In this document: positions 36,543-44,991 of the stretch, piece by piece | Position numbering within the stretch: position 1 is the first letter of the stretch | Layout: every line of letters begins with the position of its first letter | Assembly (NCBI GenBank): GCA_036559965.1 | Contig: DATBSD010000136.1 | Location: 1,640-65,639, forward strand | Length of the DNA: 64,000 nucleotides | Direction of reading: 5' to 3' | DNA from: Candidatus Limnocylindrales bacterium | Lineage (GTDB): Bacteria; Chloroflexota; Limnocylindria; Limnocylindrales; CSP1-4 | Translations under genes and position numbers: made by a program | The notes under the pieces: generated by a model | Told to the model about the DNA's origin: nothing | Databases searched by the model: none | Seen by the model: only the letters and a program-made list of their open reading frames with translations

Positions 36543-38291
36543 ATGACAGACGAGATCCTGGGCCAGTTCCTGGGCGACGACGCCTTCCCGGTGACCTGGG
36601 ATTCGGACGTCGAGCGGGACTTCTTCTGGGTCTACGACGACCTCCACATCCCGCACCCGGTCAGCCCCATGTTCTTCGACATCGGCGGCTGGTGGCTGAG
36701 CTGCGATCACATGTTCCGTCGCTTCGGGACGCCGTTCGCCGTCGACTGGCTGGCAAAGGCCGTCAACGGCTATGTCTACACGACCGCCATCCCGGCCGAC
36801 CCCGACCTGCACATAGAGGGCACCGAGTACAGCGCCCGCTACCAGGCTCGTGTGCCGCGCGACGCCGCCTTCGCCTCGACCATGGGCGCCTACCTCGACA
36901 CCGTCCTCCCAACGTATGGCAAGCACTTCGCCGACTGGTGGCGCGACCGCCTGGTGCCAGAGATGCAGCGCAACTTCGCGTACCTCGAGGCGCGCCTCGA
37001 CGAGGTCGAGCGCATGGACCTGGCGGAGACGGCTGTCCTGCTCGAGGACGCCATCGACATCCACGATCGGCACTGGAAGATCCACTGGATGCTCAACTTC
37101 GCGCAGCTCTCGGCCACGCTCGACCTGCGGGCGGTCATGGAACGGGCGCGCGGCAGCGTCGACGAGGGGCTCCTGGGACGGCTCCAGAACTCGGCTTCGG
37201 ACCGCAACTGGGACTCCATCGAGGCGCTCTGGCGGATGAAGAACGAGGTCCGCGACGACGACCAGCTGCGGGCTGCCTTCGCGCCCGAGGACACGGCCGA
37301 GATCCTGGCCGCCCTCGTGGCGGGCGAGCGCGGCCGCCGGTTCCTGGCCGAGCGCGTCGAGCCCTACCAGCGCGAGTTCGGCTGGCACGCCGTCTGGAGC
37401 CACGAGTTCATCTTCCCGACCGTGCGTGAGCAGGTGGAGCCGGTGCTCGAGCTCGTGCGCGGCTACCTCGCCACCGATTACGACTACCCGACGGCCATCG
37501 AGGCCATGCGGAAGGACATCGAGGCTGCCTCGCAGGAGATCCTCGGCGGCCTCTCGGGCGCCGACCTCGACGCCATGCGAGCGGCCAACGAGGTCAACCT
37601 GCGCATGGCGCCGCTGACGCCCGACCACCACTTCTACATCGACCAGGGCGCCAACGCCCACCTCCGCCTGGTGCTCCTGACGGTCGGCCAGAAGCTCGTC
37701 GAGCTCGACCGTCTCGACGAGCCGGACGACGTCCTGTTCCTGCGCTACAACGAGCTGCGCGCCCTCATCGGCAGCGCCGACGCCATCGATGCGCGCGGGC
37801 TCGTCGCCGTTCGGCGGACCGAGCGCGACGCCCAGCAGCGCCTCCAGCCGCCCGATTGGATCGGCACCGCGACCGCCGCGCAGCTGGCCTTCCCGTATCT
37901 CGTCAACTGGGGCTACCCGGAGCGCTTCCACCAGATCCAGTCGGAGGACCTGCGGCTGATCACCGGCATCGGCGCCTCGCCCGGGGTCCTGGAAGGCACC
38001 GCCCGGGTGGTCCAGACCATCGACGAGTTCGACCAGGTCCGCGACGGCGACATCCTCGTCTGCCAGATGACGAACCCGGCCTGGGTCGTGCTGTTCACGA
38101 AGATCGCCGCCCTCGTGACCGACACCGGTGGGCTGACTTCGCACCCGGCCGTGCTCTCGCGCGAGTTCGGCATCCCGGCCGTCATCGGCACGTCCGTTGC
38201 GACGCAGCGCATCGCGACCGGCGACCGGCTGCGGGTCGACGGGAGAGCCGGCAAGGTCGAGATCCTGCGCGAGGCGGCGTCGGGCGCGTGA
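36543..38291 (+). CDS. PEP-utilizing-enzyme family protein: novel ~450-aa N-terminal domain plus C-terminal phospho-His swivel (mobile) domain; first gene of six-gene operon
   Basis: C-terminus [48 protein letters not shown] matches the PEP-utilizers mobile domain of PpsA/PPDK/EI (catalytic His ~534, preceding Thr-Ser as in regulated dikinases); the N-terminal region has no ATP-grasp or TIM-barrel motifs I recognise. Confidence 0.8.
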   Translation: [582 protein letters not shown]

Positions 38292-42847: not shown

Positions 42848-44991
42848 CCCACGCCTACGCCCTGGATGCCCTGCCGGCGATGGCGTCTGGCGATCTGCGT
42901 GCGCTCGTGGGTGGCAAAGCCGCCGGCCTCGCCGTCATGTCGACCGAGCTCGGGTTGCCAGTGCCGCCCGGCTTCGTCATCACGACCGACGTCTGCCGCC
43001 TGTTCCTGGCCGATGGCTGGCCGGCTGGCCTCGACGACGAGATCCGGGCTCGGATGGCGGCTGTCGAGGCGACCGTCGGGCGCCGGTTCGGCGATCCCGG
43101 GGACCCGCTTCTCGTCAGCGTCCGGTCCGGCGCGCCGGTCTCGATGCCCGGCATGATGGACACCATCCTCAATCTCGGCCTCAACGATGGGACGACGACG
43201 GGTCTCGCCCGCGCGAGCGGCGACACCACGTTCGCCGAACGCTGTCGCGAGCGCCTCACGTCGAGCTTCCGCGCGATCGTCGGCATCGAAGCCCCGGACG
43301 ACCCCTGGCAGCAGCTGCGGCTGGCGGTCGAGGCGGTCTTCGGCTCGTGGCAGAGCGATCGGGCGGTGGCGTATCGGGCGAAGGAGAACATCCCGGACGG
43401 CCTGGGCACCGCGGTCACGGTGCAGGCCATGGTCTTCGGGAATCGCGGCACGACCTCCGCGACCGGCGTCCTCTTCACGCGCGACCCGGCAACCGGCGAG
43501 CCGACCCTCTACGGCGACATCCTCTTCGACGCCCAGGGCGAGGACGTCGTCGCCGGCACGCACGCGACCGAGCCCATCGCGGTCCTCGACGAGCGGCTTC
43601 CCGCGGTCGCCGCCGAACTTCGGGACCATGCCGCGCGGTTGGAGCACCACCTCGAGGACATGTGCGACATCGAGTTCACCATCGAGGATGGGCGGCTGTG
43701 GATGCTCCAGTGCCGCGTCGGCAAGCGCAGCCCGCAGGCCGCCTTGCGCATCGCTCTCGACATGGCCGAGGACTCGACGTTCCCGCTCACGCGAGCCGAG
43801 GCCGTCGAGCGCGTCGCCGCGCTGCTCGCGAACCCGCCGACGACGACGAGGGAGCGCGGCGGCGCCCTGAAGCCGCTCACGACGGGCATGCCGGCCTCGC
43901 CAGGCATCGCCAGCGGCCCCATCGCGACCAGTCCCGAAGCCGCGCTCCTGGCGGCCGACGAGGGGAGGGCAGCCATCCTCGTCCGCGCGGACACGTCCCC
44001 GGACGACGTGCCCGGCATGGCCCGCGCCGCCGGCATCCTGACATCGCGCGGCGGTCTCGCCAGCCACGCCGCGGTCGTTGCTCGAGGCTGGGGGATCCCG
44101 GCCGTCGTCGGCGCGGCCGAGGTGGCGGTGCACCACGACACGGTCGTCGTGGGCGATCGGACGTTCCAGTCGGGCGAGATCATCACCATCGACGGCAGCA
44201 CCGGTGACGTCTTCGAAGGCGCCATCCCGGTCAGTCGGGACGTCGTGCCGGAGGCCAGCCCGCTGCTTGACTGGGCGACGGAGCTCGGGATCCCGATCCC
44301 CCAGGGCGCACCCGACATCGCGCGGATAGCGCCCGATGTCCAAGCCTTCGCCGACGCCGGCGCTTCCGACCGGGCTGCCAGCCCGGACGCCTGTCTTCGA
44401 GCCGTCGCCGTCAAGGGGTTCGCTTCGGTGCAGGCGATCGCCGACGCCGTCCTCTCGACGCCAGACGTCGTCCAGCCGGCAGTCGACCGACTCTTGAACG
44501 ATGGGCTGCTGGCGATCGTCGCCGACGCCTTCCGACTGACGGACGCCGGCACGGCCCGCGCGGAGGCCTTGCGCGCCGAGGACCAGGCGGCCTGGGGCCT
44601 CGAACGTGCCAACGCTGCGCTCGATGCCTTCCTCGGCCTCGACCACCGGATGAAGGACACGGTCACGGCCTGGCAGGTCCGCGACGCCGCCGCGCAGAAG
44701 CTCAACGACCACGCCGACCCGGACTACGACCGACGGGTGCTGGCCTCGCTGGCGGACCTCCATGCCGACGCGGTCGCCTGGCTGGCGCCGCACGAGGTCG
44801 GCTGTGCGCGGTTGGGCGACTACGGCGTGCGGCTCGGGCGCGCGCTCGAGCGGGCGCTGGCGGGCGATCAGCGCTTCGTCGCCTCACCTCGCGTCGACAG
44901 CTACCACGGCATCTGGTTCGAGCTCCACGAGGACCTCATCGGGCTGGCCGGTCGCACCCGCGCGGACGAGGTCGCCGCCGGTCGCGCCTGA
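42844..44991 (+). CDS. pyruvate-phosphate-dikinase-like protein: PPDK N-terminal ATP-grasp nucleotide-binding domain plus phospho-His central domain, lacking the PEP/pyruvate TIM barrel, with a ~230-aa C-terminal extension
   Basis: GTGA overlap with coxL stop; near-identical PPDK blocks DPLLVSVRSGAPVSMPGMMDTILNLGLND, TAVTVQAMVFGN, GEDVVAGTHATEPI, DIEFTIEDGRLWMLQCRVGKRS, and His domain ILVRADTSPDDVPGMARAAGILTSRGGLASHAAVVARGWGIPAVVG; no RTEH/NDLTQ TIM-barrel motifs follow. Confidence 0.85.
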   Translation: MTHAYALDALPAMASGDLRALVGGKAAGLAVMSTELGLPVPPGFVITTDVCRLFLADGWPAGLDDEIRARMAAVEATVGRRFGDPGDPLLVSVRSGAPVSMPGMMDTILNLGLNDGTTTGLARASGDTTFAERCRERLTSSFRAIVGIEAPDDPWQQLRLAVEAVFGSWQSDRAVAYRAKENIPDGLGTAVTVQAMVFGNRGTTSATGVLFTRDPATGEPTLYGDILFDAQGEDVVAGTHATEPIAVLDERLPAVAAELRDHAARLEHHLEDMCDIEFTIEDGRLWMLQCRVGKRSPQAALRIALDMAEDSTFPLTRAEAVERVAALLANPPTTTRERGGALKPLTTGMPASPGIASGPIATSPEAALLAADEGRAAILVRADTSPDDVPGMARAAGILTSRGGLASHAAVVARGWGIPAVVGAAEVAVHHDTVVVGDRTFQSGEIITIDGSTGDVFEGAIPVSRDVVPEASPLLDWATELGIPIPQGAPDIARIAPDVQAFADAGASDRAASPDACLRAVAVKGFASVQAIADAVLSTPDVVQPAVDRLLNDGLLAIVADAFRLTDAGTARAEALRAEDQAAWGLERANAALDAFLGLDHRMKDTVTAWQVRDAAAQKLNDHADPDYDRRVLASLADLHADAVAWLAPHEVGCARLGDYGVRLGRALERALAGDQRFVASPRVDSYHGIWFELHEDLIGLAGRTRADEVAAGRA

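Follow-up and report, generated by a model that had tools for sequence, protein, structure and literature searches.

The stretch of DNA analysed here (64,000 nucleotides (nt), in the following called the window; G+C content about 71%) comes from an uncultured soil bacterium (Candidatus Limnocylindrales) of the class Limnocylindria, phylum Chloroflexota (GenBank assembly GCA_036559965.1, contig DATBSD010000136.1), and not from an actinobacterium as had been assumed in an original prediction made from the letters alone. At positions 36543–44991 it contains an operon of six genes, g1 to g6, that joins a multi-component dikinase to a molybdenum hydroxylase. The operon is a pairing of the kind found in the 3hpd cluster of Ensifer adhaerens HP1 with three additions, namely a subunit derived from pyruvate, phosphate dikinase (PPDK) and fused to an accessory protein, a protein family with the fold of phosphoenolpyruvate (PEP) carboxykinase (PEPCK) and HprK for which there is no curated model, and a home in Chloroflexota that are abundant and uncultured, with relatives in archaea. 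In the preferred reading, g6 and g1 would form a dikinase for the hydroxyl group of a small (hetero)aromatic compound, g3–g5 would oxidise the phosphorylated compound, and the phosphate would be removed afterwards, a proposal to which we give about an even chance of being correct. All coordinates of window features refer to positions in the whole stretch.

Organisation of the operon

Six open reading frames (ORFs), each with a single terminal stop, follow each other on the forward strand. They encode the acceptor component of the dikinase (g1, 36543–38291, 582 aa), a P-loop protein of the PEPCK/HprK fold (g2, 38288–39184, 298 aa), the FAD-binding medium subunit (g3, 39184–40053, 289 aa), the small subunit with two [2Fe-2S] clusters (g4, 40050–40541, 163 aa) and the molybdopterin-binding large subunit of the xanthine-oxidase family (g5, 40538–42847, 769 aa) of the molybdenum hydroxylase, and the nucleotide-binding component of the dikinase, a so-called short PPDK (g6, 42844–44991, 715 aa). 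A purpose-written gene caller based on the G+C content of codon positions returned the identical six genes with identical starts and thus agreed with the ORF list and with the gene coordinates predicted before.

The junctions read GTGA (38288), TGATG (39182–39186), ATGA (40050), ATGA (40538) and GTGA (42844). A 4-nt overlap had been claimed for every junction; this is correct for four of them, and the second is a TGATG with an overlap of 1 nt and not an ATGA. Overlaps of 1 or 4 nt occur at all five junctions within the operon, compared to about 5 of about 45 same-strand junctions elsewhere in the window (counted from the gene-caller list), and the operon is the longest run of overlapping junctions in the window. 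As only about one in nine same-strand junctions elsewhere overlaps in this way, the five consecutive overlaps are regarded as a real feature of the operon. No sigma-70-like promoter and no intrinsic-terminator-like site was found on either strand between 35.3 and 46.3 kb, in a scan that is uninformative for this organism.

The acceptor component g1

The only Pfam domain of g1 is PF00391 (residues 500–570), in keeping with the predicted domain content, which the Pfam scan also reproduced for g3–g5 and for g6. The swivel motif reads TDTGGLTSH, with the catalytic His534 encoded at nt 38142–38144. About 450 N-terminal residues had been described as a domain without recognisable ATP-grasp or TIM-barrel motifs. 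This view has to be revised, as the NCBIfam model PRK08296 aligns to the full length of g1 and g1 also matches the C-terminal two thirds of rifampin phosphotransferase (RPH) and of the prodigiosin ligases PigC and RedH. The alignments to these four models span residues 22–578, and a substrate-binding domain of the RPH/PpsA/HpeH type can be recognised at residues ~134–470. The RPH equivalog models themselves are missed by a wide distance (122 bits versus a cut-off of 999). The best PDB matches of g1 are the Listeria entries 5fbs and 5hv1, titled 'phosphoenolpyruvate synthase', which we take to be RPH; 5HV1 is indeed named as RPH in the literature (PMC12167813). The Rph_4th domain (PF27448) is present in g1 orthologues according to precomputed annotation. 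RPH and PigC/RedH combine ATP-grasp, acceptor-binding and swivel His domains and use the same swivel logic (PMC4844700). They differ from the present system in being single polypeptides, whereas here the domains are divided between g6 and g1.

With an RPH-type domain followed by a T/SxxGGxxxH swivel, g1 has the architecture of the acceptor components PpsA, CreH and HpeH, which makes the earlier comparison with phenylphosphate synthase an apt one (PMC12167813). The swivel motif is found in g1 as well as in g6, and the swivel His of both is conserved in orthologues. Full-length identity of g1 to its homologue in the archaeal locus L002 is 41.6%, and identity to the homologue of Thermomicrobium roseum is 48.6%.

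The nucleotide-binding component g6 and its fused tail

Pfam assigns PPDK_N (PF01326) and PEP-utilizers (PF00391) to g6, and no Pfam match to the PEP/pyruvate TIM barrel (PF02896) was obtained. PPDK structures in the PDB align to g6 only as far as residue ~480, and the predicted loss of the TIM barrel is therefore well founded. Up to this point the protein is of the PPDK type, with ATP-grasp and central His domain; it passes the NCBIfam model NF004531 ('pyruvate, phosphate dikinase', 534 positions) with 497 bits versus a cut-off of 456 and reaches 525 bits with the PPDK-type model TIGR01828. Its swivel domain (residues 345–456, nt 43876–44211) contains the motif GGLASH with His408 at nt 44065–44067. 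The regulatory Thr of PPDK, which lies two residues before the His (GGxTSH), is not present in g6.

The original description as a dismantled PPDK does not do justice to this protein, which is better placed among the multi-component dikinases for small molecules. In these, the acceptor component works with a separate ATP-grasp protein. The one such partner with reported size and structure is HpeI, which has about 40 kDa, belongs to the RPH type and has no domain besides the ATP-grasp, in contrast to g6, which is PPDK-derived and has a second swivel His and a fused accessory module. PPDK_N-only, PpsB-like proteins do occur in distant relatives of the operon, where they are 29–51% identical to each other and only 22–26% identical to the ATP-grasp part of g6, and no PpsB-like gene was found in the window or in the Limnocylindria loci. 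For these two reasons, the ATP-grasp subunit has been replaced in Limnocylindria by a PPDK-derived protein encoded at the end of the operon.

Short PPDKs of this type are also encoded on plasmids of Diaphorobacter, Mycobacterium (M. avium) and Rhodococcus. These proteins of 500–580 aa consist of ATP-grasp and swivel domains, are 44–48% identical to residues 19–468 of g6 and are annotated as 'pyruvate, phosphate dikinase'. In each case the neighbouring gene encodes a PEP-utilizing enzyme, and the surrounding cluster for aromatic catabolism contains either P450, alcohol dehydrogenase and aldehyde dehydrogenase genes or biotin carboxylase genes. Since short PPDKs recur beside PEP-utilizing enzymes on plasmids, systems with two swivel domains represent a conserved type that is not peculiar to the window. 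These systems of the NF004531/PRK05878 type appear to be uncharacterised, and the literature search found no paper describing a biochemically characterised short PPDK of this type. They resemble the window operon in comprising an ATP-grasp and swivel protein, a PEP-utilizing enzyme and a winged-helix/helical-bundle protein of ~200 aa. However, their accessory protein is free-standing or attached to the other component, their partner enzymes are P450, alcohol dehydrogenase and aldehyde dehydrogenase, or else biotin carboxylases, and not molybdenum hydroxylases, and genes for DUF7065 and APH-type phosphotransferase proteins stand in place of g2. The proteins matching DUF7065 (about 300 aa; L089 10227–11141 and L090 15249–16139; 35% mutual identity) adjoin the PEP-utilizing enzyme in Diaphorobacter and M. 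avium, and APH-type 'phosphotransferase family' genes recur in the same clusters. Both may be functional counterparts of g2, though they are not homologous to it.

The C-terminal module of g6 (residues ~515–715, 44386–44988), which had been called unrelated, turned out to be a conserved accessory module by profile comparison, free-standing or fused elsewhere. An AlphaFold2 model of the tail only (pLDDT 88.9) consists of a MarR-like winged helix followed by a helical bundle, and the tail ends in the conserved motif SPRVDSYHGIWFELHEDLI...AAGRA. The homologues obtained from a large collection of proteins all proved to be fragments from the same family. Profile comparison identified the tail as homologous to free-standing proteins of 200–206 aa whose genes immediately adjoin those of the short PPDKs in Diaphorobacter, M. 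avium and M. branderi (probability 99.8–99.9%, E-values 1e-30 to 1e-34, identity 34–38%), with which it shares the C-terminal motif DSYH.[IV]WFELH. In addition, the C-terminus of a 793-aa PEP-utilizing enzyme on plasmid pROB02 of R. opacus is homologous to the tail (probability 99.0%). Since either of the two kinase components, depending on the lineage, carries the module as a fusion, the simplest reading makes it a physical subunit of the dikinase and, in g6, a putative fused accessory component. The free-standing homologue of M. branderi (L096 10500–11102) is annotated as 'MarR family transcriptional regulator', which may be misleading given the fusions to either dikinase component.

The molybdenum hydroxylase g3–g5

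Genes g3 (FAD_binding_5, PF00941, and CO_deh_flav_C, PF03450), g4 (Fer2, PF00111, and Fer2_2, PF01799) and g5 (Ald_Xan_dh_C, PF01315, MoCoBD_1, PF02738, and MoCoBD_2, PF20256) encode a complete FAD/[2Fe-2S]/molybdenum cofactor enzyme of the xanthine dehydrogenase (XDH) family, as had been proposed. The large subunit contains the motifs SSIQHP (active-site Gln), GGGFGGKQ, TAFRGFGNPQ and KGMSEG (catalytic Glu), of which the Glu and the Gln align with the equivalent residues of solved enzymes. All three modules of the xanthine-oxidase family and both active-site residues are thus present. The closest solved relatives of g5 are the alpha subunit of 4-hydroxybenzoyl-CoA reductase (1rm6_A, 318 bits) and quinoline 2-oxidoreductase (255 bits), with which g3–g5 share the three-subunit architecture. 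Every match of g3–g5 to an NCBIfam equivalog lies under its cut-off, and the best NCBIfam match of g4, to the gamma subunit of glyceraldehyde dehydrogenase, is below cut-off as well.

Three assignments were considered and rejected. Against xanthine dehydrogenase stand the loop GGGFGGKQ in place of GGGFGGKE, whose Glu orients the substrate (Glu802 of the bovine, Glu232 of the R. capsulatus enzyme), and XDH equivalog scores below the cut-offs. CO dehydrogenase would require VAYRCSFR (form I) or AYRGAGR (form II) where g5 has TAFRGFGNPQ, and the respective models score 243–313 bits versus cut-offs of 950–991. 4-Hydroxybenzoyl-CoA reductase is contradicted by TIGR03194 (427 bits versus 995), by TIGR03195 (119 versus 405) and by g3, which contains only three Cys and no [4Fe-4S] insertion. 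The label 'CoxMSL-type' is consequently justified by the M-S-L gene order, but not by the active-site loop, the CO dehydrogenase scores or the accessory genes, since no coxD/E/F/G genes were found among the window ORFs scanned. From its sequence, g3–g5 is predicted to be an XDH-family hydroxylase or aldehyde oxidoreductase and none of these three enzymes.

The PEPCK/HprK-fold protein g2

No match of g2 was obtained in Pfam, in NCBIfam (even at E <= 10) or among PDB sequences, and neither PF07475 nor PF01293 hits the window protein. The AlphaFold2 model is nevertheless confident (pLDDT 93.4) and has the fold of the HprK/P catalytic domain with P-loop, upstream His and downstream acidic residue. 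The Walker A motif GESNHGKS (residues 123–130, nt 38654–38677) is invariant in the family, as are H107, Y113, K129, E147, D177, E227, Q231, R261 and R264. The earlier assignment of g2 as HprK-like is therefore right for fold and P-loop motif but not for the sequence family. Identity to HprK/P and PEPCK is 8–18%. HprK/P is a protein of ~310 aa with a different N-terminal domain, and the matched PEPCK chains are full-length, two-domain enzymes (PF01293 or PF00821) of 514–605 aa, an organisation not found in the 298 aa of g2. The spacing of H107, K129 and E147 is presumably similar to that in HprK/P and PEPCK, and Thr-Glu stands in g2 where, as we assume, Asp-Asp stands in these two. Among the approximately 55 window ORFs scanned, PF00391 in g1 and g6 was the only domain related to the PEP-dependent phosphotransferase system, in a scan that included no search aimed at HPr.

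As the His, the P-loop Lys and the acidic residue expected of an active phosphotransferase are kept, g2 looks catalytically competent, and it is conserved to a degree comparable to the operon enzymes (73–80% identity). Candidate roles are those of a regulatory kinase/phosphorylase, of an enzyme removing aryl phosphate onto ADP or Pi, or of a catalyst of a PEPCK-like reaction. The family has no curated model and no name in the sources consulted. The g2 sequence is 100% identical to an NCBI protein from a metagenome-assembled genome of Candidatus Limnocylindrales. A full scan of 1.84 billion representative proteins identified 171 relatives of g2, mostly fragments. Proteins in the representative library in which g2 appeared fused to FCD or FAD_binding_5 were discarded, as both domains belong to neighbouring genes and the fusions are most likely merged gene calls. 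A search for hidden homologues in unannotated proteins encoded by T. roseum and Diaphorobacter was negative (hhalign probability 0.3% in both), and a tblastn search of g2 against all plasmids gave nothing.

Conserved linkage across genomes

A species-level scan with one genome per species found relatives of g2 in 438 genomes. Synteny in Limnocylindria was counted in the loci of the best 80 of these 438 genomes, nearly all of them from metagenome-assembled genomes of Limnocylindria and many truncated by contig ends. In these 80 loci, g1 and g2 are present in all, g4 in 70, g3 in 69, g5 in 63 and g6 in 47, and the gene set persists through inversions and rearrangements. A GntR/FCD regulator gene lies between g1 and g2 in 61 loci (for example L001 9300–10004). 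It is missing in the sub-lineage of the window (19 loci), in most of which g1 and g2 overlap by 4 nt.

More distant relatives of g2 (36–58% identity) were found in other bacteria and in archaea of the Nitrososphaerales, Bathyarchaeia and Jordarchaeaceae. In L095, an SDR gene is followed by g1, GntR, cyclase, PPDK_N, g2 and the genes for the FAD, FeS and Mo subunits; a UPF0261 gene and a branched-chain-type ABC transporter lie upstream. L004 has the order MBL, SGL, SDR, PPDK_N, g2, FAD, FeS, Mo and aldehyde dehydrogenase; identity is 55% between its Mo subunit and g5, and 44% between its MBL-fold protein and that of the window. In L002 (Nitrososphaerales), the genes for the FeS and Mo subunits flank the g1 homologue, and g2 and PPDK_N come next. 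This locus contains two complete molybdenum hydroxylase gene sets back to back (1–3607 and 4015–9521), of which only one hosts the g1 homologue, and an SCP2 gene lies between that set and g2. The cultured T. roseum (DSM 5159) carries on its megaplasmid (NC_011961.1, about 56–68 kb) a cluster of UPF0261, PEP-hydrolase-like, GntR, cyclase, PPDK_N and FAD subunit genes together with FAH-family and ABM genes, a g1 homologue and the Mo and FeS subunits, without g2. Finally, the only partners of g2 in L085 are an SDR and an aldehyde dehydrogenase, and no dikinase gene is found within 10 kb.

The functional link between kinase genes and molybdenum hydroxylase that had been proposed is borne out by the recurrence of the set in Limnocylindria, in L004 and L095, in the archaeal L002 and in T. 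roseum; it had been named as a possible refutation that homologues of g1, g2 and g6 might never be syntenic with the hydroxylase in other genomes, and the opposite was found. What recurs as the core of the system is the combination of acceptor component, ATP-grasp component and water-dependent oxidoreductase. The g2 gene is a frequent addition and lies directly beside the ATP-grasp gene in six loci (L002, L003, L004, L086, L094 and L095). Cyclase, FAH-family and ABM genes and branched-chain-type ABC transporters give the related clusters an aromatic theme.

Genes for UPF0261 proteins (Tm-1-like, MarK-type aromatic kinases) were observed beside g1, PPDK_N or g2 in L003, L004, L086, L094, L095 and L088, and some of these clusters add a gene for a PEP-hydrolase-like TIM-barrel protein and a PF04199 cyclase. 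MarK is a UPF0261 protein that acts as an aromatic kinase (PMC12624787), which gives a meaning to the UPF0261 genes in the related clusters. These clusters thus seem to carry two different kinds of kinase.

Relation to characterised pathways

The combination of genes had been thought to be undescribed, but a precedent exists. The molybdenum hydroxylase HpdA1-4 of the 3hpd cluster of E. adhaerens HP1 (WGS VHKK01000000) converts 3-hydroxypyridine to 2,5-dihydroxypyridine, and this conversion needs orf9, annotated as 'pyruvate-phosphate dikinase', and orf10, a 'PEP-utilizing protein mobile subunit'. Knock-out of orf9 or orf10 abolished growth, and the authors could not explain why the two genes are needed (bioRxiv 10.1101/2020.01.08.898148). 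Common to both systems is an XDH-family molybdenum hydroxylase encoded beside PPDK-like and PEP-utilizing proteins, and the 3hpd cluster also contains a GntR regulator. On the other hand, HpdA has four components, including a separate membrane-anchored SRPBCC subunit, as compared to three in the window operon; the 3hpd cluster contains genes of the maleamate pathway; no HprK/PEPCK-like protein is mentioned for it; and its hosts are Proteobacteria and Actinobacteria. Of the enzymes typical of 3hpd, neither an SRPBCC/CoxG protein nor a NicX-type 2,5-dihydroxypyridine dioxygenase, an isochorismatase-type amidase or a maleate isomerase was found among the window ORFs scanned, which do include generic alpha/beta hydrolases.

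Two-component kinases with the architecture of g1 are known from the first step in the degradation of phenolic compounds. PpsAB (phenol), CreHI (4-cresol) and HpeHI/AcvAB (acetovanillone, 4-hydroxyacetophenone) phosphorylate phenolic hydroxyls, and where measured (PpsAB, HpeHI) they are dikinases releasing AMP (PMC12167813, PMC9618137). In the Hpe pathway, the later enzymes use the aryl phosphate, and dephosphorylation takes place only after the chemistry is done (PMC12167813, PMC9618137). These systems share with the window operon an acceptor component with RPH-like domain and swivel His (T/SxxGGxxxH) and a separate ATP-grasp component, but their partners are P450, biotin carboxylase or UbiD-type carboxylase instead of a molybdenum hydroxylase and g2. 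The Cre pathway likewise keeps the aryl phosphate until the chemistry is complete. Literature searches on phenylphosphate synthase together with the XDH family or AFOR yielded nothing directly relevant. The ATP-dependent hydroxylation of steroids at C25/C26 was considered as a model and set aside as unrelated, as it uses enzymes of the DMSO-reductase family and a different kinase.

Neighbouring genes in the window

Divergent from g1, an atypical transaldolase-family protein of 368 aa is encoded on the reverse strand (35397–36503, PF00923). It reaches only 109 bits versus the NCBIfam transaldolase cut-off of 367. The gene is syntenic in 31 of the 80 Limnocylindria loci and lies between an inverted g1 and g2 in L059, L061, L067 and L072; it is a possible associate of the operon. 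An MBL-fold hydrolase (51864–52757) and an SDR (52802–53470, its true start probably further upstream), both on the reverse strand and identified with Pfam and NCBIfam, adjoin the operon in about 40 of the 80 loci, and in the distant L004 they adjoin PPDK_N, g2 and the molybdenum hydroxylase. In the window, this pair (51864–53470) is displaced by about 7 kb, and it probably represents partners in the pathway.

The 1.1-kb gap behind g6 (44992–46137) contains as its two longest minus-strand ORFs two without Pfam match; at the same position, L001 has a minus-strand gene for 186 aa and a gene for 98 aa, both also without Pfam match. Adjacent to the gap, a MetE-like Meth_synt_2 protein (46138–47385) resembles the catalytic domain of cobalamin-independent methionine synthase but remains far below the equivalog cut-offs. 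The gene is syntenic in L001, L008, L017, L028 and L050, and its product is either a possible methyltransferase of the pathway or an unrelated protein.

A complete oxidative pentose-phosphate operon occupies 12243–20591 on the reverse strand (6-phosphogluconolactonase, OpcA, G6PD, 6-phosphogluconate dehydrogenase, a PGI-like protein and transketolase). A role in sugar-phosphate metabolism, suggested by FSA, transaldolase and CTP synthase genes as neighbours, was rejected, as FSA passes its equivalog cut-off and the pentose-phosphate operon lies at 12–20 kb, which marks this region as core genome. A catabolic run at 53649–64000 encodes a DHDPS-family aldolase, GMC oxidoreductase, aldehyde dehydrogenase, SDR, CoA transferase, enoyl-CoA hydratase, luciferase-like monooxygenase, shikimate/quinate dehydrogenase and FAH-family hydrolase. 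Unrelated genes are an SbcCD-like nuclease pair (Metallophos and AAA_23/SMC_N, 5857–9233), an IndA-like protein (PF04227, 23804–24721) and a DrrA-type ABC-2 exporter (24981–27887).

Proposed mechanism and alternatives

In the original prediction, ATP or PPi would drive a relay from the His of g6 to the His of g1 and on to the substrate. According to the preferred reading, g6 would bind ATP in its PPDK-type ATP-grasp domain and charge a swivel His, either first its own His408 and then His534 of g1, or His534 directly. The swivel domain of g1 would carry the phosphoryl group to the hydroxyl of a small molecule held in the RPH/PpsA/HpeH-type acceptor domain. For the acceptor, a phenolic or hydroxy-N-heteroaromatic compound is most likely; a phenol-type substrate is favoured because the characterised relatives with the architecture of g1 (PpsAB, CreHI and HpeHI) phosphorylate phenols. 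The molybdenum hydroxylase g3–g5 would then use water to oxidise the phosphorylated compound, either at a C-H of the ring or at a side-chain aldehyde, and electrons would leave via the [2Fe-2S] clusters and then FAD. The phosphate would be removed later, for which the MBL-fold hydrolase and g2 are candidates. Within the kinase module, g2 would act as a competent phosphotransfer protein of the PEPCK/HprK type, and the winged-helix/helical-bundle tail of g6 as a fused accessory subunit of the dikinase.

A chemical rationale can be offered. Molybdenum hydroxylases attack by a nucleophilic Mo-OH and hydride transfer, and a phenolate-type substituent would make the ring electron-rich and a poor target. 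A phosphate ester would cut this electron donation and block tautomerisation, and the same logic may shield the ring during side-chain oxidation in the Cre pathway.

Several observations weigh against this proposal, at least in part. In anaerobic and archaeal relatives, tungsten-type AFORs take the place of the molybdenum hydroxylase (L003, L086, L087 and L094), or an aldehyde dehydrogenase accompanies the molybdenum hydroxylase. Such partners fit the oxidation of an aldehyde better than ring hydroxylation, so the oxidised position may be an aldehyde and not a ring carbon, and they leave room for non-aromatic aldehydes; GAPDH, PGK and transketolase genes also lie nearby in some distant relatives' loci. 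The characterised phenol kinases are about 45% identical among themselves, compared to only ~24–28% identity between g1 and full-length homologues on plasmids of Rhodococcus, Azoarcus, Rhizobium, Bacillus and haloarchaea, some of which may be of the HpeH or PpsA type. The orf9 and orf10 products of 3hpd have been likened to g6 and g1 by annotation and not by sequence. As T. roseum and, by annotation, 3hpd do without g2, this protein is not needed for the basic coupling. Finally, there are no ring-cleavage or maleamate-pathway genes beside the operon in the window, and neither an SRPBCC subunit nor an XdhC/CoxF-type maturation gene was found among the window ORFs scanned.

The alternative that survives best retains the same architecture and sees in g2 a regulatory kinase/phosphorylase that would switch the dikinase by phosphorylating a Ser or Thr of the swivel domain. 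PDRP regulates PPDK and PEP synthase by such phosphorylation, and HprK/P acts likewise on HPr. The HprK/P-like fold and P-loop of g2 and its position beside the ATP-grasp gene in six loci suit this role, as does the Thr that precedes the catalytic His by two residues in most Limnocylindria g1 proteins, as in PEP synthase and PPDK (HpeH, CreH, PpsA and RPH have Met at this position). However, L002 and L003 encode g1 homologues with Leu at this position despite the presence of g2, and the residue is Val or Ala in 12 Limnocylindria sequences and Ala in 45 of 47 g6 sequences, the other two having an aberrant motif. A PDRP-like regulation through this Thr is weakened, as the Thr is not conserved where g2 is present. 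Furthermore, g2 is about as conserved as the operon enzymes, has many invariant charged residues outside the P-loop, and occurs in L085 without a dikinase gene within 10 kb. A regulatory role for g2 thus has a real but clearly minor probability.

A bolder extension of the preferred reading, which we regard as improbable when taken as a whole, would make g2 the founder of a new class of PEPCK/HprK-fold enzymes completing an 'ATP-primed molybdenum hydroxylation'. In this scheme, conversion of the substrate to an aryl phosphate by the dikinase would open an electron-rich ring or side chain that does not react otherwise to attack by the molybdenum (or tungsten) enzyme. After the oxidation, g2 would either transfer the phosphoryl group from the aryl phosphate to ADP or Pi or catalyse a PEPCK-like carboxylation, so that part of the energy would be recovered. 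This could be a widespread, unrecognised route for phenolic or heteroaromatic compounds in uncultured soil Chloroflexota, Nitrososphaerales and Bathyarchaeia.

Slightly less probable still is a non-aromatic aldehyde or hydroxy-acid as substrate, for example in the conversion of glyceraldehyde to glycerate in a non-phosphorylative Entner-Doudoroff pathway, where the molybdenum, tungsten or NAD-dependent oxidoreductase would produce the acid, and phosphorylation of the acid or its precursor would fall to the dikinase and g2. The varying partners (molybdenum hydroxylase, AFOR and aldehyde dehydrogenase) are all aldehyde-oxidising, and GAPDH, PGK, transketolase, LarA, Ldh and HMGL-like genes lie nearby in L003, L086, L087 and L094. 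The best NCBIfam match of g4, the adjoining transaldolase-like gene and the GntR/FCD regulators of most loci, a group that commonly senses carboxylates, can be read in the same direction. However, the pentose-phosphate, FSA and CTP synthase genes of the window are ordinary core-genome neighbours, and the large subunit scores 344 bits with the glyceraldehyde dehydrogenase equivalog versus a cut-off of 790. The characterised enzymes with the architecture of g1 act on phenols, pyrrole aldehydes or rifampin and not on sugars, and the UPF0261, cyclase, FAH-family and ABM genes of related clusters indicate aromatic catabolism.

Reductive dehydroxylation, also raised in the original prediction, in which a phosphorylated phenolic hydroxyl would serve as leaving group and the molybdenum enzyme would work reductively like 4-hydroxybenzoyl-CoA reductase, is considered very improbable. 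It is true that the alpha subunit of this reductase is the closest solved relative of g5 (318 versus 255 bits for the next). The extra [4Fe-4S] insertion is, however, the mark of its beta subunit, and g3 lacks it, having 3 Cys and 289 aa compared to a model of 321 positions; the score of g5 falls far below the equivalog cut-off and slightly below that with XdhA. The operon contains no low-potential ferredoxin and no CoA ligase, and the sole experimental precedent, 3hpd, is a hydroxylation.

That kinase genes and dehydrogenase are unrelated neighbours, for example an antibiotic-resistance phosphotransferase beside a housekeeping dehydrogenase, is scarcely credible: the acceptor domain of g1 does belong to the family of the rifampin-binding domain of RPH, as the original prediction had feared, but the same domain binds phenols in HpeH, CreH and PpsA, the RPH equivalog is missed, every junction of the operon is translationally coupled, the linkage survives the rearrangements in Limnocylindria and spans phyla, L002 and T. 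roseum have the g1 homologue in the midst of their hydroxylase subunit genes, and 3hpd provides a genetic precedent.

Significance

Why a molybdenum hydroxylase needs an ATP-consuming His-relay kinase has been a standing question since the report on 3hpd. The operon is a compact, translationally coupled form of this pairing that is found in hundreds of species-level genomes and shows its core parts. It also draws attention to two unstudied components, the g2 family and a winged-helix/helical-bundle protein of ~200 aa that is sometimes annotated as MarR and appears to behave as a physical subunit of short-PPDK dikinases. Many 'pyruvate, phosphate dikinase' annotations of the NF004531 type probably refer to components of small-molecule kinases and not to gluconeogenic enzymes. 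Limnocylindria are abundant in soil and freshwater, and to our knowledge there is no cultured representative of the class. In these bacteria, the pathway may be relevant to the cycling of carbon from lignin or heterocycles.

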